Source: Candidatus Saccharimonadales bacterium
Lineage (GTDB): Bacteria > Patescibacteriota > Saccharimonadia > Saccharimonadales > 2-12-FULL-41-12
Direction: 5' to 3'
Assembly: GCA_025451045.1 (NCBI GenBank)
Contig: JANWLD010000003.1
Coordinates: 69,690-133,689, forward strand
DNA length: 64,000 nucleotides
Shown here: piece after piece, positions 9,480 to 28,261 of the stretch
How the letters are laid out: each line of letters opens with the position of its first letter
Numbering within the stretch: the first letter of the stretch is position 1
Program-made: the position numbers and the translations under genes
The notes under the pieces: model-generated
Database searches by the model: none
What the model saw: only the letters and a program-made list of their open reading frames with translations
What the model was told of the DNA's origin: nothing

Positions 9480-9489
9480 GAGATAAAAT

Positions 9490-9762: not shown

Positions 9763-9765
9763 CTG

Positions 9766-11022: not shown

Positions 11023-11097
11023 TTGACTAACTATTGACTAATGTGGTATAATATATAAATAATGTATATAGAGGCTGTATAAGATAGGATTAACCAT

Positions 11098-11436
11098 ATG
11101 CCGGTAAGTGTGTTTGAAACTACGGAAAGTAACAACAGAAGGGAAATCATTGTTACGCCACAGAAGCCGAAAGTATATCGGAACCATTCCAGCCAAAGGG
11201 GCGGCGAGGTCATATTAGTCGCCACTTTCGAAGATGATACGATGGCGTTGATAATGAAAATTTCCCGTATGGCCCTTATGGCCAGCCGCGGTGAAGAGCC
11301 CTCTATGCGACGAATGATGAGGTTCGTTAATAGCATGGTAGTAGTGCGCCAGGGTATTGAAGTAGTAGATTACGAACCGAACCCTGGTAGGACCGAACTC
11401 TTTGAGGTCCAGCATTTATCAACTGCTAATAACTAA
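11098..11436 (+). CDS. Hypothetical protein
   Basis: 112-aa ORF with globular-looking composition. It overlaps a hydrophobic antisense ORF (11031..11336) that looks like a shadow frame. Confidence 0.35.
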   Translation: MPVSVFETTESNNRREIIVTPQKPKVYRNHSSQRGGEVILVATFEDDTMALIMKISRMALMASRGEEPSMRRMMRFVNSMVVVRQGIEVVDYEPNPGRTELFEVQHLSTANN

Positions 11437-11708
11437 ATTTGATCTATACGGTGTTTGCGCGGCGGGCGGACATCAAATTCCAGAGGGGCTTCACGAAAGG
11501 CATTCATCGCCACTTCGCCGATACGCCTGACTGAGTGCAAGCTGCTCATAACAGTTTCGCCGGCACTTTTTACGACTGTTTTGAACCTTTCCCCGCTGGA
11601 TTCCGGGGTACGGAGGCTTGCGCCTGAAGAACTGTGGTTTGCTACGCTATTATTTGCCATAGAAAACATATTATATATAGGATTTTCGGCGGTCAGCAAA
11701 ATTGTCAA
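11433..11708 (-). CDS. Hypothetical small protein
   Basis: 91-aa ORF with no motifs. The competing + strand ORF 11455..11859 runs into repeat DNA. Confidence 0.35.
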   Translation of the reverse strand: MTILLTAENPIYNMFSMANNSVANHSSSGASLRTPESSGERFKTVVKSAGETVMSSLHSVRRIGEVAMNAFREAPLEFDVRPPRKHRIDQI

Positions 11709-11811
11709 AATGGCCTGTTTTTTAGCGCTAAAATGCTTATTTTTATATCAAAAAAGATATTTTTACCAAAAAACAATAAAAATTATTTCGATAAAGGTCT
11801 TCGACCTTTTT

Positions 11812-11990
11812 ACCGACCCGCTTTTGGTGTCAAAAGCGGGACAAAACCACCGGGACTAGTTCAATATCTTTATTGTTTCATTGCCCAAGCCAACAACAGC
11901 CTGCGGAACTCGCTATCGCTCAAACAGTCCTCGGCTATTAGTTGTTGTTTAGACATTTACCAATCAGGATATATCACAATGCCCGGACCC
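11812..11990. repeat. X element, copy 1 (179 bp)
   Basis: Identical to 34058-34236 apart from 4 mismatches, in the same orientation. It contains a 9-bp-stem hairpin (CCCGCTTTT-ggtgtc-AAAAGCGGG). It also carries a minus-strand 28-codon sORF (11870-11956, MSKQQLIAEDCLSDSEFRRLLLAWAMKQ). Confidence 0.9.
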
Positions 11991-12019
11991 ATGCCTGAAA
12001 ATACCAAGGTATTTTCTTT

Positions 12020-12244
12020 CCAGCATTTACAAAACCGAGTGAGGGACTTTTAATTTGACCGGGTGGAACGAAAAGCAACCCATTTCCTCCCTAAGAATCA
12101 TGAGATGGGCGACTGATAAGGAGTTTTTTCATTCAGGTCAAATTAAAACAAAGCGGACCTAGAGTTTTGTAACCTGCTGTCAGTTTTTGGATTCCGTTTT
12201 TGCTGACTCAAAAATGGAATGGTTTGGTTCTTGGCCACAAGAAC
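12020..12244. repeat. Y element, copy A (possible structured RNA)
   Basis: The 5' box 12020-12051 and the 58-nt core 12175-12232 match the reverse complement of 27999-28029 and 27836-27893; the core has 1 mismatch. An internal stem AATTTGACC/GGTCAAATT (12052-12060 / 12136-12144) and a terminal hairpin GTTCTT-ggccac-AAGAAC (12227-12244) are also present. Confidence 0.85.
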
Positions 12245-12271
12245 ATATTGGGTTCTTTTTAAAGAATGTCT

Positions 12272-12526
12272 TCAATTTATTGATTCTGGTTTTTCCGGAT
12301 GAAGGGTAACTACTACTTCGTTCGGGCCGCCTTCAGGCGGATCATAAATACCTCGTCTTTCAGGGATAGGAACTATTCGCATAAAGTGATTGCCGGTTCG
12401 CATAAAAGTCCGAGGTTTTTGTGGAGGATATTCAATAGGTACATCCGCGTTTATCGGCCGCTCTTTGCTTTCGCCTTTAGCCTGCCGGGCTAAGCCCATT
12501 AAAGATGATAATCTGCCGTTTGCCAT
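12272..12526 (-). CDS. Hypothetical small protein
   Basis: 84-aa ORF with no motifs. Confidence 0.4.
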   Translation of the reverse strand: MANGRLSSLMGLARQAKGESKERPINADVPIEYPPQKPRTFMRTGNHFMRIVPIPERRGIYDPPEGGPNEVVVTLHPEKPESIN

Positions 12527-12581
12527 AGAAAATAACCTTACAATACATTAAGGATAAAAGCAATAATGCTATCATAAAGTT

Positions 12582-12908
12582 ATGAAAAACAGGACTAAAC
12601 TCCAACAGGTAGGCTGGTGGGCAACCCTGTGGTGGGGCGTATCTTGTGCGTATGTCCTGTTGTTGGTCTGGCTGGCCGCCGACACCTATGCCGATATTTC
12701 CGAAAGCGCTGACTCACAAGGTTTTTTCTCTGACTGGCAATCAGCAGTTAGCAGTATTTACGCCGAAAATAGCTACTTGCCGGCATTACTCGGTTTTATC
12801 ATAGTTGTTTGGATTATCGGCGGTATCATCTGGCTAAAGGAACTTAAAAAGCAGAAAATCAGCTACAAAGCCGCCTTCAAAGATTTATTCCTGACCATCC
12901 GAAAATAG
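12582..12908 (+). CDS. Small membrane protein (2 TM)
   Basis: Two hydrophobic segments (WWATLWWGVSCAYVLLLVWLAA and LPALLGFIIVVWIIGGIIWL). Confidence 0.6.
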   Translation: MKNRTKLQQVGWWATLWWGVSCAYVLLLVWLAADTYADISESADSQGFFSDWQSAVSSIYAENSYLPALLGFIIVVWIIGGIIWLKELKKQKISYKAAFKDLFLTIRK

Positions 12909-12926
12909 TAAGTTCATAGACATTTT

Positions 12927-13574
12927 TTAGCCGTCGTCACGGCGGTTTTGCAGTATGAACAGACCGGCGCCTAGCAGGGCAAAGGCATAATCTTTGGTCG
13001 TTTCTGGCAGATTCTGGGCTGACAGGAAATTGATATATTGAGGATCGGCTATGAGTGCACTTTGGGTTTTTTCAGTAACAAAATTAGCAACTGTCGCCCC
13101 AGCTATAGCAACACTGGTCCGGAACCGGTCTGATATTCTACCAAATGCCGAAGTGGCCGCCCAGGCTCCGGTGTAACCGAGCACGGGATGGGCCAAACTG
13201 CTGGCAATAAACTTCGGAACTTCGGGTAGAGTGTTGGTGACACCGAGATATTCTGCGGTAGTAGCCAGTAAAGCCGCTCCGCCCAGGGCGCTGGCTGTGT
13301 ATACTTTAGTGCGCATACTTTCGGGTAGTGGCGGCAAGGACCCCAATTTTTCCGGAGCAACTGACTCAACTTGTTCATTCACCGTCCAATAATACCAGAC
13401 AAAACCGCCCGTTAGGAAATTAGCACAGAAAATGGCATAATATAGTAAATGGTTAATGTTGAGCCGGGACCGGCTACTCACGAAGTGTATGAAGCCCAAC
13501 AGGAAAACAGGCTTAGGGGTAAAGATTTGTCCGAAGCGTGCGGAATCTATAGCTTTCTTGTGCGCTACGAGCAT
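12927..13574 (-). CDS. Hypothetical membrane protein
   Basis: 215-aa ORF with several hydrophobic stretches. The start is uncertain. Confidence 0.5.
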   Translation of the reverse strand: MLVAHKKAIDSARFGQIFTPKPVFLLGFIHFVSSRSRLNINHLLYYAIFCANFLTGGFVWYYWTVNEQVESVAPEKLGSLPPLPESMRTKVYTASALGGAALLATTAEYLGVTNTLPEVPKFIASSLAHPVLGYTGAWAATSAFGRISDRFRTSVAIAGATVANFVTEKTQSALIADPQYINFLSAQNLPETTKDYAFALLGAGLFILQNRRDDG

Positions 13575-14000
13575 GGCGCTTTTAAGTTCAATAGTGTCAT
13601 CAATGACGTTAGGACGACTGCGCTAGGCTATCACGCGGTGTCGGTTAATATAGGTGTGCCGACTTCCACCAGAAACGGTTATCAGACAATGGTCAAAGCC
13701 AAAGACGGCTTGGTCTTGCCGCGGCATTTAATCGGCGGGCCGCTTCGGACGCTTTCTTTTCCTAGTCCGGAATCAGCTTATTTTTACAAGGAAGACAGGG
13801 AAGCAGACCTAGCGCCGGAAGAGCTTGCTTGGACCGGCGACGACACCGCAGAGGCCCTCAGTCTTTATGAAGGGCACGAGGAGCAAAAGCAGCAGCATTG
13901 GAAGCCGGGAGACAAAGTAATCCCGCATCCGTTGCTCGGCATCGGGCCGTTACTAGGCCTTGGCTTCGTAGTAGTGCCCAACCTCCGTCGCTCCCAATAA
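13449..14000 (+). CDS. Hypothetical protein (start uncertain)
   Basis: 183-aa ORF. The first 125 nt overlap the minus-strand ORF, so an internal start (for example MVKAKDG) is more plausible. Confidence 0.35.
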   Translation: MVNVEPGPATHEVYEAQQENRLRGKDLSEACGIYSFLVRYEHGAFKFNSVINDVRTTALGYHAVSVNIGVPTSTRNGYQTMVKAKDGLVLPRHLIGGPLRTLSFPSPESAYFYKEDREADLAPEELAWTGDDTAEALSLYEGHEEQKQQHWKPGDKVIPHPLLGIGPLLGLGFVVVPNLRRSQ

Positions 14001-14053
14001 AATTAAATAAAGATTAAACTTTCATTAAATAATTATTAATTTTCCTGTCAATT

Positions 14054-14203
14054 CAAAAACCCCTTAAAAATGTTATTTAGGCGTGAATTTGGGCTAAAAA
14101 TACTATAAATTCACGTTGTATTGACATTTAGGCGTGAATTTAGCCGCCAAAACGGTGTTTGGAAAATTGGGAAGTAATACCTACAAAAACCCCTTAAAAA
14201 ATG
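14054..14203 (+). promoter_or_regulatory. Repeat-rich control region upstream of and overlapping the hsdM start
   Basis: ATTTAGGCGTGAATTT occurs at 14075-14090 and 14126-14141, with the inverted half-site AAATTCACG at 14107-14115. CAAAAACCCCTTAAAAA(A)TG occurs at 14054-14072 and 14184-14203. TTGACA is at 14121-14126. Confidence 0.5.
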
Positions 14204-15726
14204 CTATGATTACTACTGTATTTCAGGAGTTAATTTTGGATATTCAACATTTAGAACAAAAACTTTGGCAATCTGCCGACAAACTACGAAACAACATGGA
14301 CGCGGCCGAGTATAAACATGTGGTGCTTGGACTTATTTTTCTCAAATACGTTTCAGATGCCTTTGCCGTACAGTACAAAAAAGCCGAAAAAGAGGGTTAC
14401 GACCCAGAAGACCGCGACTTTTACAAAATGGATAACATCTTTTGGGTGCCAAAAGAAGCCCGTTGGGATAATATTCGCGACAATGCGAAACAGCCCGAAA
14501 TAGGCAAACTACTTGATAATGCAATGGATGCCATAGAGCGTGAAAATACATCGCTCAAAGGTGTTTTACCGAAGAATTACGGTCGGGAAGCACTGGACAA
14601 AAGGCGCCTAGGGGAGCTAATAGACCTCTTCAGTACTGTTTCGCTTAACGAGGACGGGCACAAGAGCAAAGACCTTTTAGGCAGAATCTATGAATACTTT
14701 ATGGGCATGTTTGCCGATGCAGAGGGCAAGCGCGGCGGGCAGTTCTACACTCCGCGCAGTATAGTTCGCCTGCTTGTAAACATGGTTGAGCCTCATAAAG
14801 GCGCTAGAATTTATGACCCTTGCTGTGGTAGTGGTGGAATGTTTGTTCAGAGCGAAGAATTCGTAGAGGAACATTCTGGCAATATCGGCGATATTGCCAT
14901 TTACGGCCAGGAAAGCAACCAAACCACCTGGCGACTTATTAAGATGAACATGGCCATCCGCGGTATCGATGCAGATATCAAATACGGCGATACTTTGCAC
15001 AATGACCAGTTAAAAGATCTAAAAGCAGATGTTGTTTTAGCTAATCCGCCGTTTAATATAAGTGATTGGGGCGGTGAATTACTGCAGAGCGATGTTCGCT
15101 GGAAGTATGGCCCTCCGCCGAAGGGTAATGCTAACTTTGCTTGGGTTCAGCATTTTATCCATCATTTAAACCCAACCGGTACAGCCGGGTTTGTCTTAGC
15201 AAATGGTTCTATGAGTTCGCAAAGTTCCGGCGAAGGAGAAATCCGCAAAAACATTATCAAGGCAGATTTGGTAGATGCAATAGTTGCTTTACCAAGCCAG
15301 CTATTCTTTAACACTGGCATCCCAGCTTGTCTTTGGTTTGTTTCAAGAGATCGCAAAAATCGCAGCGGCAAAACTTTGTTTATCGACGCTCGCAATATGG
15401 GCAACATGATAAACCGCCGCAACCGCGAACTTACGGATGAAGATATAGTCAAAGTTGCAGAAATCTATAATGAATTTAAAAAATCAGGAACAGTAGAAGA
15501 TGTCCCCGGCTTTGCTAAAGTTTCAACTATAGATGAAATAAAAGAACATGACTATGTCCTTACGCCTGGTCGGTATGTAGGCGCAGAAGAAATAGAAGAA
15601 GACGACGAAACTTTCGAAGAAAAAATGCAAAAACTCACAACAGAACTAAAAGGACAATTTGCAGAATCCGACAAGTTAGAAAAGCAAATTAAAGAAAATT
15701 TAAAGAAGATCGGTTATGAATTATGA
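14134..15726 (+). CDS. hsdM: Type I restriction-modification system, N6-adenine DNA methyltransferase subunit
   Basis: HsdM N-terminal signature ([32 protein letters not shown]), SAM motif [10 protein letters not shown], and catalytic motif IV LANPPFN. The GTG at 14134 lies inside a repeat, so ATG 14206 (MITTVFQE) is the more likely start. Confidence 0.95.
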
Positions 15727-17141
15727 GTAAAGATGAAGTGACTATATTTTATTCATGGCAGTCAGATGAACCTAAGACCCGAAGCTACATTGAAAAATAT
15801 CTAAAAAATGCTATTGACGGTGTAGCAAGCAAGCCCGATTTAGAAATATCACCTAGAATGGATAAGGACACGCAAGATGAAGTGGGCGCAGTTCATATTG
15901 CTGAAACTATAAAAAAGAAAATAGATAAATGTGGAATCTTCGTCGCTGATGTTAGTTTGGTTGATAAAGGGGCTTCAGGGCGTTTATTAGTAAATCAAAA
16001 TGTACTTTTTGAACTAGGTTATACAGTTGGCAAGAAATCAGAATCATCTGTAATTTTAGTTGCCAATACCGATTTAGGAGATTTAAAAAATCTTCCATTT
16101 GATATTGCATATAATCGTATAATAGGGTTTTCTTTAAAAAACGATCCAAAGGGAGAAAAGTTTCAAAAATCAATTGAGTTTGCCATCAATGCCCACTTGG
16201 AGACCATATCAGTTCAGGAAAAACAGGATGAGTCAGAAGTCCTCAAGGAAAATCTTCTTTCGGCGATTGATAACAATAAACCCACCCGAACCTTATCAGA
16301 AAAATATTTTTCACAGTTATATAAAAAAATTAATTCAAAAGCACCAAGTCGTTATAAATCTAGAGATAATATTAAAGAATATAGAGCTCAAATTTATAAC
16401 AACTACGAAACCACTAAACCTTTAACCGAAGAATTATTTGAAGTGTTATCTGTGGCAACGGAATATAAAAAAATTGACGTGATATTAACAGCCTATAAAC
16501 AGATTGAGATCATATCACAATATTACGATATTGTACCCGAAGATAATGGCCAAATGTACGATATTTCAAGAGATTTTTATGAATTAGTGGTGTATGAGAT
16601 TTTTTCTATAATTTTAGGCTGCGTAGCAAAAGAAAAGTTGTGGGAGATATTACCAGAGATAAATAGTATTAAGCTTCGAAGACCGAGTGGTTATGACAAG
16701 CCACGTACTCTAGAACGTCTTTATGGCTATCCTGGAGCTGTACTTGAATATTATAAAGAGCTAAAAGATGTTAATTATGTGATTCCTATGACACCTATGG
16801 TAGAAGAAAGGTTTAAAGATAGAGAAGACATTCTGCAAGCTTATCTTAATGGATGTTTGCTCATGTATTTTATGGTTAATAACCATCCTTGGTTAGTGGG
16901 CTTACTCCTTGGAAGCTCTTGGCAACGATATATTCCGGACTTTATAGGAGAATTCCGAAAAAAAAGTTTTATAAATATTCTTCAAAAAATACCCAACGTA
17001 GCTTCTATAGATGAATACCGCACATACCTTTGGAGTCAAATAAATAGAGATATGGGGCACTGGTCATATTCGCAAGATAACTTACTTCCTGTATTCATGA
17101 TGGAAGGCATTAACCAAAAAGAAGATATAGGAAAAGAGTGA
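15723..17141 (+). CDS. TIR-like (nucleotide-binding/NADase-fold) N-terminal domain protein with a roughly 300-aa helical C-terminal domain of unknown function
   Basis: The N-terminal 150 aa show a beta-alpha pattern: [30 protein letters not shown] (Glu codon at 16011-16013) and SVILVAN. This resembles the bacterial TIR-like family consensus (..NVIFELGYF..). The start overlaps the hsdM stop (ATGA). Confidence 0.55.
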
Positions 17142-17168
17142 GCTGGATTGTTTATTTGGAATTAAATC

Positions 17169-18245
17169 ATGAGTAAACCAACTCTAAGTATTTATACCTT
17201 CAAGTTCGTTGTACGCGCCAATAGCTGGGACGATGTAGTATCAATATTAAAAGATGAGCTTGGTATTACGAAAAAACGAAACTCTAGTGACCGAAAAATA
17301 AGCGGCCTCTATCTTGTATCCTGTATTATTGATGATAAAGATATCACGAAAAATTTTTACAAAAAAATTGCTAAGTCCAATAATATAGTCATTCATTCAG
17401 ACGGTAAGTCTACTTCATTGTACCCAAAAATTTTAAAAGAAACTCAGATAGTCGAAGAAAAATTACGCTGGCTCCTGCTCCACGTAAGCGATGCAATAGA
17501 AGATTACGTAAAATTACTAGGGTATGAAAAAAACGATATTGTAGAAAATAGCAGCCTTGATCCACTTACTTCTAAATTAAGCTTTGAGACCATACTTGAT
17601 TTACTAGAAATAGATCAGTCATGGGCGAGAGATGGTGTAGATGATGGAAAGATGCGTCATCTTATAAAAAATAGTAGTGATTTTGCAACCTTTAAATCTA
17701 AATATATAGAGAAAACAACACCGAAAACAGTCTGGGGATCTATAAGCGACCTAGTGCTAGAACGACCTATAAAGTGGGAAACTATTTATAAAAAGCTTCA
17801 TAGTATACGAATACTTCGTAATAAGTGCGCGCATTTTCATACTGTAACAAGTGATGATTTTAGTCAGGCAAAGCATTTACGCACACAAATTATGAAAAAC
17901 CTAACGAAGAAAAGTTCATATACCTCTACGGATATTAAGACACTAACGGAACTTAGTAAGCAAATGGTAGAAACCGTAAGAACGCTACAGACGAGTTATT
18001 ACAAAGATATTGCTAAGTTAACCAATGCCTCTTTCTCTGCGCAGCAAGCATTAGCAAATCTTTCGGGGGGCGCGTATCAATCTCCATCAATAGCAGAGCT
18101 GGCAAAATCTGTAACACGAATGGTCAACAAAATGTATGCACCGGTGTTTAGTAGTGACTATTATAAACTTGCATCAAGAATGCCAGTATCGGGTCTAAAA
18201 GATAACGACAGTTCTCCTACTAAAAAGACAGGGGAAAAGCAATGA
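17169..18245 (+). CDS. HEPN-domain protein (Swt1-like / Abi-like putative RNase)
   Basis: Rx4H motif ILRNKCAH (17817-17834), preceded by the helical pattern EEKLRWLLLHV typical of Swt1-type HEPN domains. Confidence 0.6.
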   Translation: MSKPTLSIYTFKFVVRANSWDDVVSILKDELGITKKRNSSDRKISGLYLVSCIIDDKDITKNFYKKIAKSNNIVIHSDGKSTSLYPKILKETQIVEEKLRWLLLHVSDAIEDYVKLLGYEKNDIVENSSLDPLTSKLSFETILDLLEIDQSWARDGVDDGKMRHLIKNSSDFATFKSKYIEKTTPKTVWGSISDLVLERPIKWETIYKKLHSIRILRNKCAHFHTVTSDDFSQAKHLRTQIMKNLTKKSSYTSTDIKTLTELSKQMVETVRTLQTSYYKDIAKLTNASFSAQQALANLSGGAYQSPSIAELAKSVTRMVNKMYAPVFSSDYYKLASRMPVSGLKDNDSSPTKKTGEKQ

Positions 18246-19411
18246 AAAAAACGGTTTTGTTTGAGGATTTGGTAGCTCAAAAAATAGATAATCGAGGCAA
18301 GACGCCTCCTATTATAGATAGCGGATATCCGCTCCTAGAAGTTAATGCTATTTCAAAGAATAGTATTTATCCTGATTCCACAAAGGCGAGAAAATTCGTT
18401 GCTCAAGAAACCTGGGATAACTGGTTTCGCCAACACCTTGAAGAAGGCGACATTTTATTTACTACAGTTGGTACTATCGCCGAGTCAGCAATTGTACCAA
18501 AAAATCCCGGCTATGCTGTTGCGCAAAATATCCTTGGGTTTAGATTTGATAAAAAAGAGATCGAGCCATTTTATGCGCTATATCTAATGCGCAGTAAGTG
18601 GTTTATAGATCAAATTGCCGGGAGAACGGTGGAGACCGTTCAAAAAAGCATAAAATGGGCAGATATGCGGGGAATAAAAATAACCCTGCCGCCCATTAGC
18701 GAACAACAAAAAATAACTGAAATTGCCCGAGGAATTGATGAAATGATTGAGCTGAATCGGCGGATGAATGAGACTTTAGAAAAAATCGGCCAAACCCTTT
18801 TTAAACATTATTTTATAAACAACCCCGAAGCGGAGAAGTGGGAAAGAGGCATTTTGAGCGATATTATCGCGCTTAATCCACGCGAATCAATTCCAAAAAA
18901 CTTTCCGGTGAGATACCTTGAAATGAAGAATGTGCCGGAAGTTGGCATGAGTGTTAAGGCAACTGAGATTCGTAACTTTACGGCCGGCATGAAATACAGG
19001 AATGGGGACACTTTGCTTGCACGAATTACGCCGTGTCTTGAAAATGGAAAAACTGCCTTTGTAGATTTTCTCGATCAGGATGAGGCCGGTTTCGGCTCTA
19101 CAGAATATATTGTCATGAGACCAAAACAGGTTGAGCTGACGGAATATATTTATTTCCTTGCTAGGAGTAGTGTTTTTCGAGCATTTGCTATACAAAGCAT
19201 GGTTGGTACATCAGGCAGGCAGCGCGTGCAAAACGATTCCGTCGCGGCATATGAAGTAGCTATCCCTGATGTAGATTTACTTGCTAAGTTTCATCAAAAA
19301 ATGCAGAAGGCTTTTGCGCAAATCCGAAACAACGCTCGACAAATCCAAACCCTAACCATCCTCCGCGACACCCTCCTACCACACCTAATCTCCGGAAAGA
19401 TAAAAGTATGA
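18242..19411 (+). CDS. hsdS: Type I restriction-modification system, specificity subunit
   Basis: Two variable TRD halves are separated by the conserved helix LPPISEQQKITEIARGIDEMIELNRRMNETLEKIGQTLF. The C-terminal conserved helix is QTLTILRDTLLPHLISGKIKV. The start overlaps the previous stop (ATGA). Confidence 0.9.
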   Translation: MKKTVLFEDLVAQKIDNRGKTPPIIDSGYPLLEVNAISKNSIYPDSTKARKFVAQETWDNWFRQHLEEGDILFTTVGTIAESAIVPKNPGYAVAQNILGFRFDKKEIEPFYALYLMRSKWFIDQIAGRTVETVQKSIKWADMRGIKITLPPISEQQKITEIARGIDEMIELNRRMNETLEKIGQTLFKHYFINNPEAEKWERGILSDIIALNPRESIPKNFPVRYLEMKNVPEVGMSVKATEIRNFTAGMKYRNGDTLLARITPCLENGKTAFVDFLDQDEAGFGSTEYIVMRPKQVELTEYIYFLARSSVFRAFAIQSMVGTSGRQRVQNDSVAAYEVAIPDVDLLAKFHQKMQKAFAQIRNNARQIQTLTILRDTLLPHLISGKIKV

Positions 19412-20541
19412 GCTTGAGCCAAGGGTGGATCACCCCCAAGTATGATCCGATAGAACAAATACCAAACCAACTAAACGCAGGCTTAGATAGTGTTGATATT
19501 TGCAGCCAGTTCACAGCTAGAGCTGTTAAAAATGGTTTTGCTAATTCTGGTCTTAAAGCAATTCAGGATGGGCCAAGAGCAAAAATATTTGTATCAGCCC
19601 TACACATACCTGATATAAAAGAGGGTACCTCGCATCATTTCAAATTAGACATTGTAAAGTTTACAAGACCGAATAAAGACACTCCGTGGAAAAGGATAAA
19701 TTTTCAAACCATAGACAAAAAGGAGAGTATTGACCAGCTCATGACTTTCTTAAGAGAGCAGGCCTCTCTAGTTGGCGTGAAGATTGAAGACAATAAGCAA
19801 TATCAAGCAATTGCTGTAAATAATAAGCTAGGCGTGACCATTGAAAAAGTTCAAGCTTTTGTTGCGGACGCTCTATCTGGAGATAAGGCGGTGGTTGAAA
19901 AAGAGATATTAAAAACTCTTAAACAACAAAGGAGCTCAAAAGAACAAATAAAGCAGTACGAGAATGATCTCGCTGAGTTCAAAAGACTTATAGCGGAACC
20001 GGGGACTACAGAGACAGATATGCAAAATTTTCTTTCAACTCGCTTCTGGTTCTTTGGCCTAGATTATATCCAGAGCCATCTTCGATCAAAACCAAAATTT
20101 AGCACTGGCTTGGGGTCTGAGTATGACTTTCTTCTAGAAGGCTTCAATCAAGTTTATGACATTGCAGAGCTCAAGGGGCCTAATGCAAAGTTAATCGATG
20201 AAGTTAAAGCTTCAGATCGAAAAGGCGCATTCGATCCAAGGGTTGATTATAAATATTCTAGCGATTTTGGACGAGCTCTTCATCAAGTAATTTCTTATTT
20301 GGATGAGTTTGAGCAAAATTTTGGAAAAATAGAGGAGAGCCAGCCATCTATAAAACGATTCAACTATCCCTCTGCTGTTATTGTTATATCAAAAAGAAGT
20401 TTGTTTCCTGAGGCCGGTAAAGATAGTAAAAAATATTTACATTTGCTCAATCGACAGTTTGCAAATATTGACATTCTTACATATGACGATTTGGCAGACA
20501 GAGCAGAAAATATAATAAAATTCATGAAAGAAGAGTCCTGA
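19408..20541 (+). CDS. DUF4263 / Shedu (SduA)-like PD-(D/E)xK nuclease
   Basis: The C-terminal half reads TETDMQNFLSTRFWFFGLDY...GSEYDFLL...YDIAELKGP...ALHQVISYLDEF. This matches the DUF4263 pattern (..fL..nPWl.g..y...D.....ElK...Q..Y). The start overlaps the hsdS stop (ATGA). Confidence 0.6.
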   Translation: MSLSQGWITPKYDPIEQIPNQLNAGLDSVDICSQFTARAVKNGFANSGLKAIQDGPRAKIFVSALHIPDIKEGTSHHFKLDIVKFTRPNKDTPWKRINFQTIDKKESIDQLMTFLREQASLVGVKIEDNKQYQAIAVNNKLGVTIEKVQAFVADALSGDKAVVEKEILKTLKQQRSSKEQIKQYENDLAEFKRLIAEPGTTETDMQNFLSTRFWFFGLDYIQSHLRSKPKFSTGLGSEYDFLLEGFNQVYDIAELKGPNAKLIDEVKASDRKGAFDPRVDYKYSSDFGRALHQVISYLDEFEQNFGKIEESQPSIKRFNYPSAVIVISKRSLFPEAGKDSKKYLHLLNRQFANIDILTYDDLADRAENIIKFMKEES

Positions 20542-20616
20542 CATGGACAAAGCGCAATTACTGACAAGACGACGAGCCTCACTTCTGTTTTTCCTAATGT
20601 CCGTAAAGCTAAAAGT

Positions 20617-21963
20617 ATGATAAATATATCGGAAGAATTATTTATATCAACCATAGATTCTGGATTTTTTAGGCATATAAGAAAAAATAGTGTTTTACCT
20701 CAAGAGATAGATCAGACTCGTGAGGAATATCTAAAACAACTCTATAAGAAAGTTGTTACGGGCGAGTACTTCGTGGCAGGTCCGCGTGCTTTTAAAATAG
20801 AAAGTAAATCTCAAAAAGTTGCTCGGATTATACCTATGTTAACGGTTGCTGATTATTGCGTGTATTACTTTTGTGTCAAGCAGGTAGAGGATGAACTAGC
20901 CATTGATAGAGTAGCAAACACCTACGGAGCATTTAGCCTTGGAGGTATAATTAGGGATTCTGAAGAAGATCAACTAGACGCCATAAGCCTTGAATTACCA
21001 TCAACTCCATCAAGAGCTTACAATATGCTGGGTTGGATTGAATCATGGAAAGACTTTCAGAAAAAAGTTTGGCTTACTGCAAGTTCTGCGAATACTTCTG
21101 AATTTCTGTTTTCTGATATTGCTAACTTTTATGACACCATTGACCTAGACAAGCTAGAGGCAAAAATTAGACATGCTGTTCCAAAGGATAAGCTTCCAGT
21201 AATACACTTATTGTTTTCATTTTTAAAAAACTGGAATAGAAAAATCTATGGATACGCCCATCAGACAAAGGGATTGCCCCAGGATGAGGTGGGCGATTGT
21301 TCGCGCTTATTGGCTAATTTTTACCTACAGAATTATGATGAGAAAATTAGTAAATATTGTGATGATATTAATGTGACTTATTTTAGATATGCTGATGATC
21401 AAATTTTCATGTCTAACTCTAAAAAAGACAATCTGAAGGCTCTATACAAGGCATCTGTGCTACTCCACAATGAAGGATTAAATTTTGGTGTTTCCAAAGT
21501 AAAAATTCAGGATGAAAGTGAATTCTCCATATATTGGGCATTTGAAATATTTGATCTTCTAGGAGATTCAAATGACAAAGCCAGGGTTACTCAAGGCACA
21601 GAAAAGTATATAGCGTGGTCTAGTGAATACGGAAAAGATAAGTTTAGATGGTGGTCGGTGTTACTAAGGATTATTAGTTGTGATATATCGAGCTTATCAC
21701 CAGAACTAAGAGAAGGTATATTTACGGATCTGCTAAAAGAGGAATTTTTATTAGATCAATCATCATATGTTTTTAAGAGAATCCATAACGCTTTAGAGGA
21801 ATCTAAACGCAAAGACTTTATCGAAGTTCTATACAGTCTATCAAAAGAGAGCAGGTTCAATGCTTATCTGTACGAACTTCTTGACTTACAAAGAAGAATT
21901 GAAGTCTTCACAAAGGAACAGATTACTAAGATAGAAGAAAGAATAGAGGAATTGTCTTTATGA
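20617..21963 (+). CDS. Reverse transcriptase, defence-associated Abi/UG-like
   Basis: RT motifs are present: 1/2 KVARIIPMLTVADYCVYY, A FSDIANFYDTID, B GLPQDEVGDCSRLLANFYL, C FRYADDQIF (YADD = 21388-21399) and D/E LNFGVSKVKI. The helical C-terminal 150 aa has no endonuclease, maturase or retron VTG features. Confidence 0.85.
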   Translation: MINISEELFISTIDSGFFRHIRKNSVLPQEIDQTREEYLKQLYKKVVTGEYFVAGPRAFKIESKSQKVARIIPMLTVADYCVYYFCVKQVEDELAIDRVANTYGAFSLGGIIRDSEEDQLDAISLELPSTPSRAYNMLGWIESWKDFQKKVWLTASSANTSEFLFSDIANFYDTIDLDKLEAKIRHAVPKDKLPVIHLLFSFLKNWNRKIYGYAHQTKGLPQDEVGDCSRLLANFYLQNYDEKISKYCDDINVTYFRYADDQIFMSNSKKDNLKALYKASVLLHNEGLNFGVSKVKIQDESEFSIYWAFEIFDLLGDSNDKARVTQGTEKYIAWSSEYGKDKFRWWSVLLRIISCDISSLSPELREGIFTDLLKEEFLLDQSSYVFKRIHNALEESKRKDFIEVLYSLSKESRFNAYLYELLDLQRRIEVFTKEQITKIEERIEELSL

Positions 21964-22688
21964 ATTATAGATTAGTAGCAAATCAAATAGGTGATTTATT
22001 GAAATATGCTACCACCTACAACGAAATAGAACGTGCAGCGAAGTCTATATTTACCTTTCAAAAAGAAAAATTCCCTAATGATTCAATAACATCTGTTAGG
22101 GCACAGGCTTTTCATGACTGGGTTTTAACTCTTGCAAAACAATCAATGACCAATGAAGATCGGAATGATTTGTTGGTTCAATTTGTTTCTATCGTTACGC
22201 CGGAAGATCTAGAAAACGATGTAGATAAAATCTTAAAGAAAGCAAAAATTGACCTTAAAGTAGGATCTGTTATCTCGGATGATTTTATGAGTAGAAACTT
22301 TCATGAAGAAATCCATAAACACTGTCGAAAACTATTCATTCAAGAAAATTATTTTCATGCAGTATTTGAAGCGGCAAAAGTCTATAACAAACTTGTCCAA
22401 AAAAAGTCCCAAAACCAAAGAGACGGACAAGGCTTAATGTTAGATGTTTTTTCTTTAAAGGGAGTACTGAAACTTAATACTGGACGCACTCAAACAGAAA
22501 AAAATGTACAGGAAAGCGTTAAATTTTTATCTGCCGGATTAATGCAAGCGATGCGTAATCCAACCGCTCATGAACCAGCGCTTGATTGGCCTATATCAAA
22601 AGAGGACTGTTTAGACATGCTCAGTTTTATATCTTATTTGTTTAGACAATTAGACAAAGCAATTTATTTTAAAAGTACTGCTAATTAA
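21960..22688 (+). CDS. HEPN-domain protein of the TIGR02391 (Hypoth_Ymh) type
   Basis: C-terminal GLMQAMRNPTAHEP (Rx4H at 22554-22571), preceded by DGQGLMLDVFS and followed by EDCLDMLSFISYLFRQLD. The start overlaps the RT stop (ATGA). Confidence 0.75.
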   Translation: MNYRLVANQIGDLLKYATTYNEIERAAKSIFTFQKEKFPNDSITSVRAQAFHDWVLTLAKQSMTNEDRNDLLVQFVSIVTPEDLENDVDKILKKAKIDLKVGSVISDDFMSRNFHEEIHKHCRKLFIQENYFHAVFEAAKVYNKLVQKKSQNQRDGQGLMLDVFSLKGVLKLNTGRTQTEKNVQESVKFLSAGLMQAMRNPTAHEPALDWPISKEDCLDMLSFISYLFRQLDKAIYFKSTAN

Positions 22689-22963
22689 AAACGTTTGCGC
22701 CTTGCTACATTAATGAATTGTTCAAAACTTGTCATCTCCCTACGAGTCATAGGAATTTTGTCGAATACTCCGGTAGGAACTTTATCACTACCTTCAATTA
22801 TTATTCCTTTTTCTACTTCTTTTGAGGAGTATTTATTTTCAAGTTGATCAATATATTCCTGATACTCTTGGTTATTTGATGCGAAAGATTTACTTTTTTC
22901 TTCTTTGCCATCACTTAATAAAACTAATAGGACCACCATTACATGCTTAATTGTAGCGGTCAT
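22685..22963 (-). CDS. Hypothetical small protein (antisense to the operon); doubtful
   Basis: A 92-aa ORF exactly fills the spacer between the HEPN gene and hsdR. It has a hydrophobic N-terminus (VMVVLLVLL) and no motif. Confidence 0.3.
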   Translation of the reverse strand: MTATIKHVMVVLLVLLSDGKEEKSKSFASNNQEYQEYIDQLENKYSSKEVEKGIIIEGSDKVPTGVFDKIPMTRREMTSFEQFINVARRKRF

Positions 22964-25900
22964 TGTATACTAGTCAACAAATGACCGAAGATAAAGTAGA
23001 GCAAGAAGCGCTGAAAATACTAGCTAATTTAGGCTGGGAAGTTTTGAACGGACCGGAAATTGGCCCGGATGGCTCCGGCGAGCGACAATATCACGAAGTG
23101 TTTTTAGATAAAAAATTGACTGCTGCTGTACAAAAACTTAATCCGCAAATACCAAAAGAAGGCTTAGATAAAGTAAGAACTTTATTGAGCAGGAGTACCG
23201 CACCGACGCTACTAACTGATAATCATACCTTTCATAACCTTTTAGTTAATGGCCTGGATTATGAATACCGAAATAAAAACGGTGAAATAAGAACGGATAA
23301 AGTCTGGCTGTTTGACTTTGAAAACCTTGAAAATAACGAATTTGTGGCAGTAAACCAACTAACTGTTTTGCAAGGCGAGCATAACCGCCGGCCAGACATA
23401 GTGCTGTTTGTAAACGGCTTGCCGCTGGTAGTGATAGAGCTAAAAAATGCTGGGGATGCTAAGGCAGATGTGCGAGCGGCTTTTCGGCAAATACAGACAT
23501 ATAAAGACCAGATAAACGCGCTCTTTAGATTTAATGAACTGTGCGTGATAAGCGACGGGCTGGATGCACGGATGGGTACTATAAGCTCTGACTTTGAACG
23601 ATTTATGACATGGAAAACCATAGACGGCGAGAAGGAAGTAGGAAATGTCCCAATGCTGGAAGTACTACTACGCGGCGCGTGCGATAAGTCCAGACTGCTT
23701 GATATAGTGCGGAACTTCATAGTGTTTGAGCGGTCTGATGTGAATGAACAGAACTATATAAAAAAGGTTGCGGCATACCACCAGTATTGGGCAGTTAAAA
23801 AAGCAGTAAACAGTACGGTAGGGGCGACTAAGCCAGATTCTGACCACCGAGCAGGTGTAGTCTGGCATACGCAAGGTTCTGGCAAGTCACTATCTATGGC
23901 GTTTTATGCAGGATTATTGACTGTATCGCCAGAGCTAAAGAACCCCACAATATTAGTTGTAACGGACAGAAATGATCTGGATGGACAGCTTTTTGGTACG
24001 TTTGCGGCTTGTCATGATTTACTGCGACAAGAACCTGTGCAGGCGCACACCCGAAAAGAACTGAGAGAACTGCTGAATAGAGAATCTGGCGGAGTGATCT
24101 TTACCACTATACAGAAATTCTCACCAGGTGAAGATGAAGATACGTTGCCAGTTTTGAGCCCAAGAAACAACATAATAGTCATAGCTGATGAAGCACACCG
24201 TAGCCAATACGGGCTAAAAGCTCGCGTGCGAGAAAGCGATGCACAGCTGGTGTATGGATATGCAAAATATATGCGTGATGCATTGCCGGGAGCTAGCTAT
24301 ATAGGCTTTACCGGAACGCCAATAGAGCGTGAAGATAAATCTACCCCAGCGGTTTTTGGCGAATACATAGACATATACGACATACAGCAGGCCGTAGAAG
24401 ACCAAGCAACCGTGCCTATATATTATGAAAGCCGCCTGATAGACCTGGGCATGGATGAAACAACCAAAAAGTGGCTGGATAGTGAAGTAGAAAACCTGCT
24501 TGAGGGCGAAGAGCTATCACGCCAGGATAAGTTAAAGGCTGAATGGACACAAAAAGAAGCAATAGTGGGCAACACGGAGAGACTAAAGCTAATTGCCAAA
24601 GACATAGTTAAGCATTTTGAGGAACGTCAAACAGCGATAGAGGGCAAGGCCATGATTGTGACTATGAGCCGAAGGATTGCAGCTGCTTTGTATGATGAGA
24701 TTATTAAGCTTAGGCCAGAGTGGCACAATGAAGATGACGACAAAGGTCTAATAAAAGTCGTTATGACTGGCTCGGCGTCTGATGAGCAGGCGCTACAAAA
24801 ACATTTAAGAAGCAAAGATAAACAAAAGGCCCTGGCGGCGAGGATGAAAGATGTTGATTCTGAGCTAAAGCTAGTGATTGTGTGCGACATGTGGTTAACA
24901 GGATTTGACGTGCCGAATATGCATACAATGTATTTGGATAAACCATTAAAAGGGCATAACTTGATGCAAGCGATAGCAAGGGTAAACAGAGTTTATCCTG
25001 GGAAAATTGGCGGCTTGGTCGTGGACTATTTGGGAGTTGCAGCTGCACTACGTGAAGCAATGGCAGATTATACCGAAAGTGGCGGGGAAGGAACGCCTAC
25101 TTTGGACCAAGACAAAGCCGTGAAGATCATGAAGCAGAAATATGAAATCGTTCGAGATATGTTCCATGGGTTTGATTACAAAAAATATTTTGATGCTGAA
25201 ACCGGGGAGCAACTGCAGATTATTCTGGATGCCGAAGAACATATAACCGCCATGGATAATGGCCCGAAGAGATTGAAGCAACACGTTGTAGAACTGGGTA
25301 AAGCATTTGGTCTAGCTATGCCACGACCAGAGGCTCTGGAGCTGCGCGAGGAAGTAGCATTATTCCAGGCAGTCAATGCACGCCTAGAGAAAATAGATGG
25401 CCCTAGGGGTGGACCAACTGATGAAGATTACCGGATGGCAATAAAGCAAATTGTAGATAAAGCTATAGCCCCCGTGGGTGTAGTAGATATCTTTACTGCT
25501 GCAGGCCTAGAAAAGCCGAATTTGTCTATATTGTCTGATGAATTCTTGGCAGAAATGCGCAATATGGAGCGTAAAAATTTGGCGGCGATTGTTCTGCAGA
25601 AACTCTTAGACGATGAGATAAAAGTTAGGTTCAAACGAAATGCGGTAAAAACTCAGCAATTTTCAGAAATGCTGGAAGAGGCATTGGCTCGATATAAAAA
25701 CGGAACCATTGAGGCTGCGCAGGTAGTAGAAGAACTTATAAAGATTGCAAGAAATGTCCGAGAAGAAGTAAAAGAAAACGAAGAAAGCGGGCTTAGCGAA
25801 GCGGAGTTAGCTTTTTATGATGCTTTGGTGGCTCATGGGACAGCCAGAGAAGTAATGGGAGATGAAAAGCTTAGAGAACTTTCTAGGTTGTTGGTGCAAA

Positions 25901-26076
25901 GGGTCCGAAATAATGTATCCATAGACTGGACAATGCGGGAATCGGCACAAGCGAGACTGCGTGTAGAAGTAAAGAAGCTCCTACGAGAGTTTGGCTACCC
26001 GCCTGATAATCAAGCAATTGCTACAAAGTTAGTACTTGAACAAGCAAGCCTGTTTGCTGAAGAAGAGATTAAATAA
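22963..26076 (+). CDS. hsdR: Type I restriction enzyme, endonuclease/translocase subunit
   Basis: N-terminal nuclease region (PDIVLFVNGLPLVVIELK), helicase motif I TQGSGKS, motif II VIADEAHRSQ, and motif VI QAIARVNR. The track start is TTG 22963; ATG 22981 (MTEDKVEQEALKIL) is more likely. Confidence 0.95.
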   Translation: MYTSQQMTEDKVEQEALKILANLGWEVLNGPEIGPDGSGERQYHEVFLDKKLTAAVQKLNPQIPKEGLDKVRTLLSRSTAPTLLTDNHTFHNLLVNGLDYEYRNKNGEIRTDKVWLFDFENLENNEFVAVNQLTVLQGEHNRRPDIVLFVNGLPLVVIELKNAGDAKADVRAAFRQIQTYKDQINALFRFNELCVISDGLDARMGTISSDFERFMTWKTIDGEKEVGNVPMLEVLLRGACDKSRLLDIVRNFIVFERSDVNEQNYIKKVAAYHQYWAVKKAVNSTVGATKPDSDHRAGVVWHTQGSGKSLSMAFYAGLLTVSPELKNPTILVVTDRNDLDGQLFGTFAACHDLLRQEPVQAHTRKELRELLNRESGGVIFTTIQKFSPGEDEDTLPVLSPRNNIIVIADEAHRSQYGLKARVRESDAQLVYGYAKYMRDALPGASYIGFTGTPIEREDKSTPAVFGEYIDIYDIQQAVEDQATVPIYYESRLIDLGMDETTKKWLDSEVENLLEGEELSRQDKLKAEWTQKEAIVGNTERLKLIAKDIVKHFEERQTAIEGKAMIVTMSRRIAAALYDEIIKLRPEWHNEDDDKGLIKVVMTGSASDEQALQKHLRSKDKQKALAARMKDVDSELKLVIVCDMWLTGFDVPNMHTMYLDKPLKGHNLMQAIARVNRVYPGKIGGLVVDYLGVAAALREAMADYTESGGEGTPTLDQDKAVKIMKQKYEIVRDMFHGFDYKKYFDAETGEQLQIILDAEEHITAMDNGPKRLKQHVVELGKAFGLAMPRPEALELREEVALFQAVNARLEKIDGPRGGPTDEDYRMAIKQIVDKAIAPVGVVDIFTAAGLEKPNLSILSDEFLAEMRNMERKNLAAIVLQKLLDDEIKVRFKRNAVKTQQFSEMLEEALARYKNGTIEAAQVVEELIKIARNVREEVKENEESGLSEAELAFYDALVAHGTAREVMGDEKLRELSRLLVQRVRNNVSIDWTMRESAQARLRVEVKKLLREFGYPPDNQAIATKLVLEQASLFAEEEIK

Positions 26077-26113
26077 ATTCAAGAGCTAGCTTTACTAAAG
26101 GATTTGAATAGCC

Positions 26114-26142
26114 TTGTAAATTATTAAGTTTTATTCTATAAT
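26114..26142 (+). promoter_or_regulatory. Sigma70-type promoter candidate for the 26153 ORF
   Basis: TTGTAA (26114-26119), a 17-bp spacer, then TATAAT (26137-26142). Confidence 0.45.
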
Positions 26143-26152
26143 AATACTTAAT

Positions 26153-26482
26153 ATGCCTATTGAAGTTTTGATGCGAGGTCCTAAAGGAGAAGTTGCTTTA
26201 GGTAAAATAGAATCTGGTATGCCAGGTACTTTTAGTGACTATTCTACTGAGCCGCCAATGGTTATATCGGCGATGTGTTCTTGGGATTCAAGTGAAGGCA
26301 TGGTATATCACGTGCCTGGGAATACACAGGCTAAGTCAAAGCTAACTTTTATACCAGCATCGGCTTACAATGACGAGAATCTAGCCCAGAAGTTGACTTC
26401 AAAAGACAATACTTATGAAAAAGATATTATGAACAGTAATGGTAGGAAAGGCCGGCTGGTCTTAAGACTTACACAAAAATAA
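26153..26482 (+). CDS. Hypothetical protein
   Basis: 109-aa ORF downstream of a promoter-like sequence. No motifs. Confidence 0.5.
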   Translation: MPIEVLMRGPKGEVALGKIESGMPGTFSDYSTEPPMVISAMCSWDSSEGMVYHVPGNTQAKSKLTFIPASAYNDENLAQKLTSKDNTYEKDIMNSNGRKGRLVLRLTQK

Positions 26483-26502
26483 AAATTCTTAAAAACTAAT
26501 GT

Positions 26503-27684
26503 TTAGTAGTTGGTTTTTTCGACAAAAGTCAGGGCGTTGCCTGCTTTTCCGGCACGGCCGGCACGGCCTATGCGGTGGATATAATCGTCGTAGCTGGCCG
26601 GAGTAGAATAGTTGATGACATGTGTGATATCGGTGACATCGATACCCCGTGCCGCGACATCGGTTGCCACCAAAACGGTAATATTATTTTCCCGAAAATG
26701 ATTAAGCGCGCGCTGGCGAGAACCTTGAGTTTTGCCGCCGTGGATGGCGCCTGATTTGAAACCCCGGCTGGCAAGTTCTTTGCTGAGTCTTTCCACACTG
26801 CGCTGGGTGTCGTCAAAGACAAGAGCCTTTTTGACGTTTTCGTCTATTAAAAGATCATGGAGTTTGCCAATCTTTTCATTGGACGAGTTGTATTGAACGA
26901 TATTCTGCTCGACAAAGTCGCTGGTGTCGCCTTGTTTGACTGAAACGGTCACCGGGCTATTCATAAATGTTTGTATCAGAGCGTTAATCTTCGCGTCAAT
27001 TGTAGCGGAGAAGAATAGCGACTGCCGGTTTGGGCTGACTTGCCCAAGGATTGAACGAATATCGCCTATAAAGCCCATGTCCACCATGCGGTCGACTTCG
27101 TCCAGTACGACAATGTTGAACCTAGATAAATCGAGACTGCCGCGCTGTAAATGGTCCTTTATGCGTCCCGGGGTGCCGATGACTACATTCGGCCTTTCGC
27201 GAAGTCCGCGTAGCTGTTTGCCCATAGGCGAGCCGCCGATAAGAACAACGCCGCCAAGTCCGCTGCGCCGGGCAAACGAGATACATTCGTCCTCTATCTG
27301 CTGGGCCAGTTCGCGGGTTGGAGCTATGATGATAGCACGGGAGTTTTGGTCGACTATAAGGCGCTGAAGTATCGGTATAGCAAAGGCCGCGGTCTTTCCG
27401 GTACCGGTGTTGGCTATGCCGATAACATCTTTGCCGGCTAGCGCGTGCGGGATGGTTTGATCCTGGATAGGTGAAGGGGCTATGTAGCCTTTGGCTTTGA
27501 TATTTTCTTTCAGTAGAGGGTGAATATCAAAATCATCAAAATTATGTGTGGGCTCGTAAGCCTCAGCTTGCACTTGTTTGGCGGCTTTTATAAATTTGCC
27601 GGGGTGGATGTATTGCTTCCGGCGCGAACCATAGCTTGGCCGGCGATTGCGAGTATTCCTAGAAGAATACGATGAATAAGACAT
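26503..27684 (-). CDS. DEAD-box ATP-dependent RNA helicase
   Basis: Q motif (GYIAPSPIQ), I ANTGTGKTAAF, Ia PTRELA, II VLDEVD (a DEAD variant), III SAT and VI HRIGRAGRAG. The N-terminal tail is basic. Confidence 0.92.
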   Translation of the reverse strand: MSYSSYSSRNTRNRRPSYGSRRKQYIHPGKFIKAAKQVQAEAYEPTHNFDDFDIHPLLKENIKAKGYIAPSPIQDQTIPHALAGKDVIGIANTGTGKTAAFAIPILQRLIVDQNSRAIIIAPTRELAQQIEDECISFARRSGLGGVVLIGGSPMGKQLRGLRERPNVVIGTPGRIKDHLQRGSLDLSRFNIVVLDEVDRMVDMGFIGDIRSILGQVSPNRQSLFFSATIDAKINALIQTFMNSPVTVSVKQGDTSDFVEQNIVQYNSSNEKIGKLHDLLIDENVKKALVFDDTQRSVERLSKELASRGFKSGAIHGGKTQGSRQRALNHFRENNITVLVATDVAARGIDVTDITHVINYSTPASYDDYIHRIGRAGRAGKAGNALTFVEKTNY

Positions 27685-27787
27685 AAAAAAAGAATCCTTT
27701 ATTTCGTTAGTTATTTAGTCGGTTGATCAGTAATGAACAGCGAGTAAAAAACTACGAATGACCCGGATTCATTAGGTTGATGTAAAC

Positions 27788-27816
27788 ATTTTAACAGAAA
27801 AAAATGCTTATGTCAA
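27788..27816 (-). promoter_or_regulatory. Sigma70-type promoter candidate for the DEAD-box helicase gene
   Basis: On the minus strand: TTGACA (27816-27811), a 17-bp spacer, then TAAAAT (27793-27788). It lies about 100 nt upstream of the ATG at 27684. Confidence 0.55.
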
Positions 27817-27823
27817 TGAGGAT

Positions 27824-28029
27824 GTTCTTCTGACGAAGAACCAAGCCATTCCATTTTTGAGTCAGCAAAAACGGAATCCAAAAACTGACAGCAAGTTGAA
27901 AAAAACATGATGCTCGCTTTGTTGCGGTCTTGTCTGGCCTGCGGGACTCCTTCCAGTCGGCCATGAAGGCTGGTCCTCGGCCTGTTCCGACAAGACCGAA
28001 AGTCGCTCACTCAGTTTTTCAAATGCTGG
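27824..28029. repeat. Y element, copy C (inverted relative to copy A)
   Basis: This is the reverse complement of copy A. It has the terminal hairpin GTTCTTC-tgac-GAAGAAC (27824-27841) and the 58-nt core (27836-27893, 1 mismatch). The internal stem CGGTCTTGTC/GACAAGACCG (27925-27934 / 27989-27998) sits at the same relative position as the stem in copy A but has a different sequence. The 5' box is at 27999-28029. Confidence 0.85.
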
Positions 28030-28261
28030 GAATAAATCAGAATGCCTCGCAATACCCAACCCCAAAAAAACACAAGAGCCTGATTGCGAGCCAATCGGTC
28101 TGGCAAATGCTGAATCAAAGGATATTTGCTCAGGCTCAAGCAAAGCCGGAATAGCAAAAAGTTATCTTTCTAAATTAGAACGCTGGAAAAGCTGATTGCG
28201 CGTATTGTTCGTTAGAACATCTATTCGACAGATATTGTAAAAAATGTTAAAATGTTGGTAA

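Follow-up and report, generated by a model that had tools for sequence, protein, structure and literature searches.

Why does a 15.6-kb segment that holds a defence operon lie between two copies of one long inverted repeat? The question is raised by a stretch of 64,000 nucleotides (the window) from the chromosome of a Saccharimonadales bacterium, in which the repeat, here called Y, is found as two full-length copies. Y1 occupies 12020-12246 on the plus strand. Y2, which is inverted relative to it, occupies 28029-27822 on the minus strand, where 6 nt separate its 3' end from the downstream -35 box of a DEAD-box RNA helicase gene. An earlier reading, made from the sequence alone (the sequence-only reading), had proposed that the copies could mark the ends of a formerly mobile island or serve as substrates for inversion. 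The analysis reported here suggests that Y1 and Y2 may be old paralogues of a structured intergenic element of about 210-230 nt that could act as RNA, and that the helicase and a small membrane-protein gene, not the Y repeats, delimit the defence island.

A repeat search and pairwise blastn bore out the presence of two Y copies in opposite orientation. They form the longest inverted pair of the window (arms 12165-12246 and 27822-27903, 82 nt, 91% complementary, with 15,575 nt between them), the runners-up measuring 30-44 nt at 73-77%. Region alignment showed that the homology reaches further, covering about 227 nt of Y1 and about 208 nt of Y2. By pairwise blastn the copies share a 3' core of 72 nt at 94.4% identity (12175-12246 versus 27893-27822), the first part of which is perfectly identical over 48 nt (12175-12222 on the plus strand versus 27893-27846 on the minus strand), and a 5' box of 31 nt at 87% identity (12020-12050 versus 28029-27999). 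The core had been described as near-identical over 58 nt; its near-identity stands, but the length is better given as 48 perfect bases inside 72 nt at 94%. The perfect stretch reflects either strong constraint or homogenization by gene conversion. The central 110-130 nt or so are unalignable by sequence, with the pairing kept. Two 24-nt sub-patterns of Y occur exactly twice each in the window, where shuffled sequences lead one to expect 0.00-0.01 occurrences. The 5' box of both copies carries CCAGCATTT, which is present at 8 sites in the window (e.g. 11409, 12020, 28029, 34256 and 63722) versus 1.0 expected; several of the other sites are intragenic. Sequence comparison revealed GATTCAGCATTTGCCAGACCGATTGG, a candidate remnant of another Y-type 5' box, at 28090-28116 on the minus strand upstream of Y2, where CAGCATTT reappears as well (28105-28112).

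Both copies are predicted to adopt one architecture, in which a closing helix (CAGCA/UGCUG plus an A/U-rich helix) is followed by an internal loop with the conserved blocks GAGUGAG and ACAAAGCG, a long irregular hairpin with the conserved apical block GGSCGACUG..AAGGAGU, and two 3' hairpins. In Y1 these parts run from the 5' box (12020-12050) through the closing helix and the long hairpin to the 3' hairpins at about 12188-12222 and 12226-12244. RNAalifold predicted 61 pairs on the alignment of Y1 with Y2, of which 16, one of them in the terminal hairpin, stay paired through changes on both sides. In an alignment of five family members, which is small and fitted to the model, 93.9% of the cells are standard pairs versus 37-48% when the partners are slid, and 36 of the 61 pairs have changed on both sides; these values were attained in none of 500 shuffles, so that the signal is large for all the smallness of the alignment. 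The secondary structure of the Y family is conserved through compensatory changes. A small peptide encoded by the 3' core was ruled out: the differences between Y1 and Y2 are all non-synonymous there, and compensate each other in the hairpin instead.

Relatives of Y were sought in other genomes with a covariance model built from Y1 and Y2, which was first applied to 1.27 Mb from Patescibacteria helicase neighbourhoods and then, with filters off, to further fetched loci. Three related elements were found, two in locus L084 (GCA_034680565.1) and one in locus L023 (genome JAQGGW01). The full-length member in L084 at 15642-15855 (108.5 bits, E 1e-29) has compensatory changes in each of its helices, the 3' hairpins among them. 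The other L084 element, at 9704-9843, is short and lies directly upstream of the helicase promoter; its 5' box matches the remnant GATTCAGCATTTGCCAGACCGATTGG, and it is accompanied by an X-like hairpin (see below) upstream of the same helicase. The L023 member, matched by the model at 9608-9778 and placed at 9580-9766 on the plus strand, is likewise located upstream of the helicase. Y1 scored 274 bits with this model and 178 bits with a three-member model, which yielded no further members over 1.4 Mb. The Y family thus has members in two other Saccharimonadales metagenome-assembled genomes besides the source genome. The sequence-only reading had regarded Y copies that are numerous and randomly placed genome-wide as an argument against it; related elements at other intergenic sites (X1, X2, L084 15642-15855 and L023 9580-9766) lean in that direction.

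Two side observations concern these loci. In L023 the 420 nt upstream of the helicase (9380-9800) contain three long near-perfect hairpins, with a minimum free energy of -190 kcal/mol versus -118 kcal/mol for shuffled sequence (z = -14). In L084 the Y-family elements at 9704-9843 and 15642-15880 are in direct orientation and flank the helicase together with a ClpP/restriction-modification (R-M)/Fic cluster. The L084 pair hints that Y-type elements tend toward the edges of this variable region.

A second repeat in the window, X, is probably a distant relative of Y when it is read on the minus strand. X1 is located at 11780-11990 (repeat proper 11799-11990) and X2 at 33995-34256 (repeat proper 34045-34236), the latter outside the bracketed block. 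The two are direct repeats of each other, with 98% identity over 179 nt (95-98% over 34045-34236). The hairpins that flank them differ in sequence between the copies and retain their pairing. The layout of X parallels that of Y: a closing helix, a long hairpin, a hairpin of a U-run and an A-run, and a short terminal hairpin. A CCAGCATTT box is present at the minus-strand 5' side of X2, 12 nt before it. X1 contains the motif CCGAGGAC...GUUCCGCAGG at 11934-11900, which it has in common with X2, with Y2 and with L023 at 9652-9696 on the plus strand and 9463-9423 on the minus strand; the motif shared by X and Y may be written as the consensus CCGAGGAC...GUYCCGCAGG, and the L084 member carries the close variant UCGAGGAC...GUCCCGCAG. 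The model of Y1 and Y2 matched the minus strand of X1 over its full length (19.7 bits, E 2.8e-4, filters off) and that of X2 in part only, and the three-member model gave weaker full-length minus-strand matches to both (E 0.07-0.08). The folding energy of X is -72 and -78 kcal/mol on the minus strand versus -57 and -58 kcal/mol on the plus strand, and the fold contains 9-13 G-U pairs on the minus strand versus 2 on the plus strand. Together with X the window holds at least four family members (4-5 in 64 kb), and the folded Y and X elements are under selection for pairing.

The members occur in recurrent settings. They are often situated directly upstream of a promoter on the same strand, as are Y2 and the helicase-linked elements of L023 and L084; promoter-like hexamers are also found after X1. 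Others (Y1, X2 and L084 15642-15880) lie between convergent gene ends. X1 on the minus strand and Y1 on the plus strand stand back-to-back, 5' end to 5' end and 30 nt apart, and direct reading of the sequence between them reveals a perfect 20-nt palindrome, GAAAATACCAAGGTATTTTC, at 11997-12016. L023 repeats this layout upstream of its helicase, with one element at about 9392-9495 (minus strand) and another at about 9580-9766 (plus strand).

What do these folded elements do? We slightly favour the view that Y and X act as RNA, either as small structured transcripts or as RNA-level signals at gene boundaries. This is inferred because covariation occurs in all helices, unpaired blocks are conserved and the G-U pairs of X are biased to one strand. 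The terminal hairpins of Y (GGUUCUU..AAGAAC) may also stop convergent transcription. On this model the elements would gather in permissive intergenic DNA around a defence hotspot beside the core DEAD-box helicase, where the island would be exchanged between the helicase and the conserved membrane-protein gene.

Several observations weigh against an action as RNA. Compensatory change falls short of proving an RNA function for Y and X, because DNA palindromes also yield it. The strand asymmetry is plain for X but not for Y. Promoter and terminator scans of the members detected no consistent upstream promoter motif and no U-tract terminators. Of about 88 helicase or methyltransferase (MTase) neighbourhoods that were sampled, only 3 yielded the family, and the L023 element forms a 190-nt hairpin that is almost perfect (z = -11), closer to a DNA palindrome than to a typical RNA gene. 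Furthermore, some link between Y elements and island edges may exist after all, because the Y elements of L084 flank the helicase and a small R-M/Fic cluster.

The near-perfect L023 hairpin, the patchy distribution and the 98% identity of X1 and X2 fit a selfish DNA palindrome about equally well. X and Y would then be non-autonomous mobile DNA of the kind of repetitive extragenic palindromic (REP) units and bacterial interspersed mosaic elements (BIME), or of miniature inverted-repeat transposable elements (MITE), with the pairing kept at the DNA level, a spread to permissive intergenic sites and the RNA structure as a by-product. Their occurrence upstream of the helicase is indeed patchy: they are present in the window, L084 and L023, and absent in L083 (Logan contig SRR16915459_103256), in L087-L090 and in most of L001-L080. 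The loci of the almost identical X1 and X2 are unrelated, the L023 hairpins are very long (z = -11 to -14), the back-to-back pairs of X(-) and Y(+) recall a BIME-like alternation, and a further family of long hairpins, Z, resides in the same window. These points have to be set against borders of X and Y that, on inspection, bear neither terminal inverted repeats nor target-site duplications, and against a window in which no transposase, RAYT-like or IS200/605-like gene was found. The conserved unpaired blocks (GAGUGAG, ACAAAGCG and GGCCGAC..GGAG) and the one-strand G-U bias of X suggest a function that is specific for sequence and strand, and the exact cores are without matches in GTDB genomes or JGI metagenomes. 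Selfish palindromes were considered an unlikely explanation, though one to be reckoned with.

The elements match no described family and are best termed dispersed structured intergenic repeats. Rfam 15 gave no match over the whole window at gathering thresholds, and chance-level matches only at E up to 10 over Y1/X1, Y2, X2 and the L023 element. Nothing resembling Y or X was detected by blastn in phage and plasmid collections, and viral contigs gave 0 matches. An exact 24-mer of Y had 0 matches in GTDB genomes, and an exact 20-mer had two chance matches only in JGI metagenomes, inside a transporter gene. In the literature nothing relevant on structured or repeated intergenic elements in Saccharibacteria was found; to our knowledge the non-coding RNAs of the Candidate Phyla Radiation are almost uncharted. 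There is a moderate chance that Y and X are a genuinely new functional RNA family of this radiation. That they constitute a lineage-specific family of functional RNAs of about 200-260 nt, typically in back-to-back pairs in divergent intergenic regions, repeatedly beside the helicase promoter and at hotspot edges, is proposed tentatively. If this holds, the elements could partner with the helicase as RNA or be its substrates, could signal a boundary or insulate, or could provide homology handles that aid the exchange of cargo. With strong covariation, no Rfam match and a recurrence beside the helicase promoter in three genomes, Y would offer a concrete family for metatranscriptome testing.

Y as the non-coding RNA of a retron or defence reverse transcriptase (RT) was rejected: the RT is of the UG13b class and lies 8 kb away, and no RT was called in the fetched L084 locus, which carries Y-family members. 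Y2 was also rejected as part of the conserved leader of the helicase. The promoter and leader of about 100 nt (27685-27816 on the minus strand, TTGACA-17-TAAAAT with TG) are almost identical in the window, in L083 (9867-10000) and in L084 (9871-10000), the helicases being 86-90% identical, but the conservation in L083 and L084 begins at the -35 box, downstream of Y2. The last 90 nt or so of the leader are detectable in L001-L010; the leader is probably a conserved regulatory 5' untranslated region.

How, then, do the Y copies relate to the island that they bracket? The block contains a Type I R-M operon (hsdM, hsdS and hsdR; 14134-26076 on the plus strand) in which genes for a TIR-like protein, an AbiD/Abi2-like protein, Shedu SduA, the UG13b-class RT (PADLOC 3e-125) and a HEPN/Ymh protein (PD-Lambda-3_B-like) are embedded. 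The Y pair does bracket this operon, and the operon is an accessory island that GC content and tetranucleotide distance mark as foreign. The atypical composition is confined to about 14-26 kb, with a GC content of 33-41% (lowest, 33-36%, over the genes inserted in the hsd operon) and a tetranucleotide distance of up to about twice the background. The DNA at 12-14 kb and 26-28 kb looks native, so that the foreign composition stops 1.7-1.9 kb inside each Y. The helicase gene (26503-27684 on the minus strand) is a Saccharibacteria core gene, for which tblastn confirmed 126 relatives in the genomes of GTDB species and whose close homologues run into the thousands, and forms the conserved right flank of the variable island. 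Its left flank is o12582, a conserved gene for a small membrane protein at 12582-12908 on the plus strand. Whereas the claim that the whole 15.6-kb segment is accessory applies to the hsd operon, it does not apply to these two genes.

Synteny was not conserved at any of 80 GTDB-representative helicase loci. Closer relatives were reached via protein homologues, and L083 was the only one syntenic across the slot. Its helicase is 87-90% identical to that of the window, and it shares the right-hand gene order of the window (response regulator, HisKA, g33338, g32817, xseB, xseA and flippase). Next in L083 come unrelated genes spanning about 5 kb, the helicase, a set of different defence genes that takes up about 9.3 kb, and then the o12582 homologue, which is 65% identical at the amino acid (aa) level and oriented as the window predicts. 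The L083 cargo (11299-20508) comprises Multi_ubiq/E2/ThiF/BubE, HNH, an SLFN-like helicase, DUF4145 and DUF3800. Upstream of the L083 helicase no Y was found; the similarity to the window starts exactly at the helicase -35 box. The sequence-only reading had held that an unchanged gene order and content in relatives lacking Y would tell against it. L083, without a Y upstream of its helicase, keeps the gene order, but the content of its island differs and the flank on the Y1 side was not seen. Locus L086 retains the MTase and the small conserved gene o11098, followed by another defence cluster (486-6916; EcoRI-type methylase, GmrSD/HNH, OLD-TOPRIM and DUF2130), and the cargo of L084 (13492-15620) consists of a MutH-like protein plus an N6_N4 methylase and Fic. 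The helicase/MTase-o11098 neighbourhood is a defence hotspot whose cargo differs per relative, and the slot open to exchange is bounded by the helicase and o12582, at about 12.9/14.1 to 26.1/26.5 kb. The Y copies bracket the island by position only, because they lie outside o12582 and the helicase, and the proposal that they are its ends is not supported.

This also bears on the idea of a once-mobile island, 12020-28029, built like a composite transposon and with the Y copies as its terminal inverted repeats. Inverted repeats do enclose horizontally acquired defence genes here. However, the supposed element would include two conserved genes, its foreign composition ends 1.7-1.9 kb before either Y is reached, single Y-type elements are found at other sites, and the island was exchanged in L083 without Y2. 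The outer flanks of the pair contain no target-site duplication (TATTTTCTTT versus GAATAAATCA), the inner flanks no direct repeat of at least 12 nt, and att-like direct repeats around the hsd operon amounted to chance 10-12-mers only. The absence of an integrase, transposase or tRNA from the window, noted earlier, was upheld by domain scans (Pfam, NCBIfam and PADLOC) and a tRNA search; neither tRNA nor tmRNA was found at the borders, and no recombinase domain in 9-36 kb. The composite-transposon reading is largely refuted, and we regard it as hardly credible.

The Y copies might still be crossover sites, at which RecA or another recombinase inverts the 15.6-kb block and so flips the defence operon and the helicase. 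Inversion at Y is conceivable because the 48-bp identity is about the minimum useful length for RecA recombination; the stretch, embedded in 72 bp at 94%, is inverted and is the only part of Y long and similar enough for homologous recombination. In both copies the perfect stretch is on the inner side, toward the block, as exchange or gene conversion would predict, and the flipped state, X1-Y-promoter-helicase, would yield the order X-Y-helicase that L023 and L084 show. The sequence-only reading was thus right that the repeat could in principle be a substrate, but there is no sign that inversion has occurred. Cumulative GC skew across the block, the check that it had suggested, climbs steadily without a reversal at 12.2 or 27.8 kb, and L083, which is without Y2, shares the order and orientation of the flippase side, the helicase, the island and o12582. 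The apical domain of Y2, not that of Y1, matches the helicase-linked elements of L023 and L084, which fits an old, uninverted linkage of Y2 to the helicase. In addition, no invertase was found in the window and hsdS would stay unaltered by the inversion. An inversion switch is accordingly thought very improbable. The result is corrective: neither it nor a transposon is supported, and the limits of the defence island are set by the helicase and o12582.

The window is ordinary chromosome (prfB, ftsEX, ctp, pyrG, a Trm11-like methyltransferase, xseAB, recO, glyS, PBP and topA). The Z hairpins, the third family of long hairpins, are located at 61071-61162 and 63301-63396 in opposite orientations. 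Each lies just beyond the 3' end of a gene and has a closing stem, GCCnnGUAGUnnnCUUUUGAG...CUCAAAAGnnnACUACnnGGC, with compensatory differences. With X, Y and Z, an ultra-small Saccharibacteria genome bears several families of long intergenic elements that fold. The gene divergent from the helicase, at 28262-29260 (332 aa), has no homologue but itself at E <= 1e-10 in a set of 5.8 billion clustered proteins; Pfam and PADLOC detected no domain in it. Two 32-nt promoter-like sequences, at 11024-11055 and 36144-36175, are 84% alike (TTGACnAAnGTGGTATAATATA); one is upstream of o11098 and the other upstream of a 407-aa gene at 36197. Their similarity suggests that o11098 and the 407-aa gene may share regulation.

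Compared with known systems, Y and X resemble REP/BIME units or multi-copy small-RNA families in their behaviour without coinciding with either. They are similar to the REP/BIME of enterobacteria in being intergenic imperfect palindromes that fold as hairpins, with oppositely oriented neighbours (X(-)/Y(+)), several sub-types per genome and sites at gene ends and between divergent genes. REP units measure about 35-40 nt and number hundreds per genome, whereas Y and X are multi-domain elements of 200-260 nt, 4-5 in 64 kb, for which no RAYT transposase was found. Two features that also set them apart from REP/BIME, namely unpaired blocks that are conserved and, in X, a bias of the G-U pairs to one strand, point to a function at the RNA level. 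From MITEs they differ in that the identity borders of X1/X2 and Y1/Y2 carry neither terminal inverted repeats nor target duplications. With paralogous families of bacterial small RNAs Y shares its multiple copies, a conserved core beside covarying stems, the intergenic position and the 3' hairpins; unlike these it has no assignable promoter, U-tract terminator or Rfam match. As in chromosomal inversions mediated by insertion sequence (IS) or rrn copies, inverted homologous sequences flank a multi-gene block, but the identity tract of Y is 48 bp (72 bp at 94%) versus about 1-5 kb, and no change of orientation or disturbance of the skew was seen. Unlike invertase or shufflon segments, the Y copies have no recombinase gene beside them according to the domain scans of 9-36 kb. 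The island, finally, is of a known kind, a standard Type I R-M operon that has taken up further defence genes and sits in a hotspot bounded by core genes: the slot between the helicase and o12582 holds Type I R-M/Shedu/UG13b-RT here and Bub-like/HNH/SLFN-helicase/DUF4145 in L083, as is typical where cargo is replaced and the flanks are conserved. This likeness to defence hotspots belongs to the island and not to the Y repeats, which lie just outside its conserved flanks.

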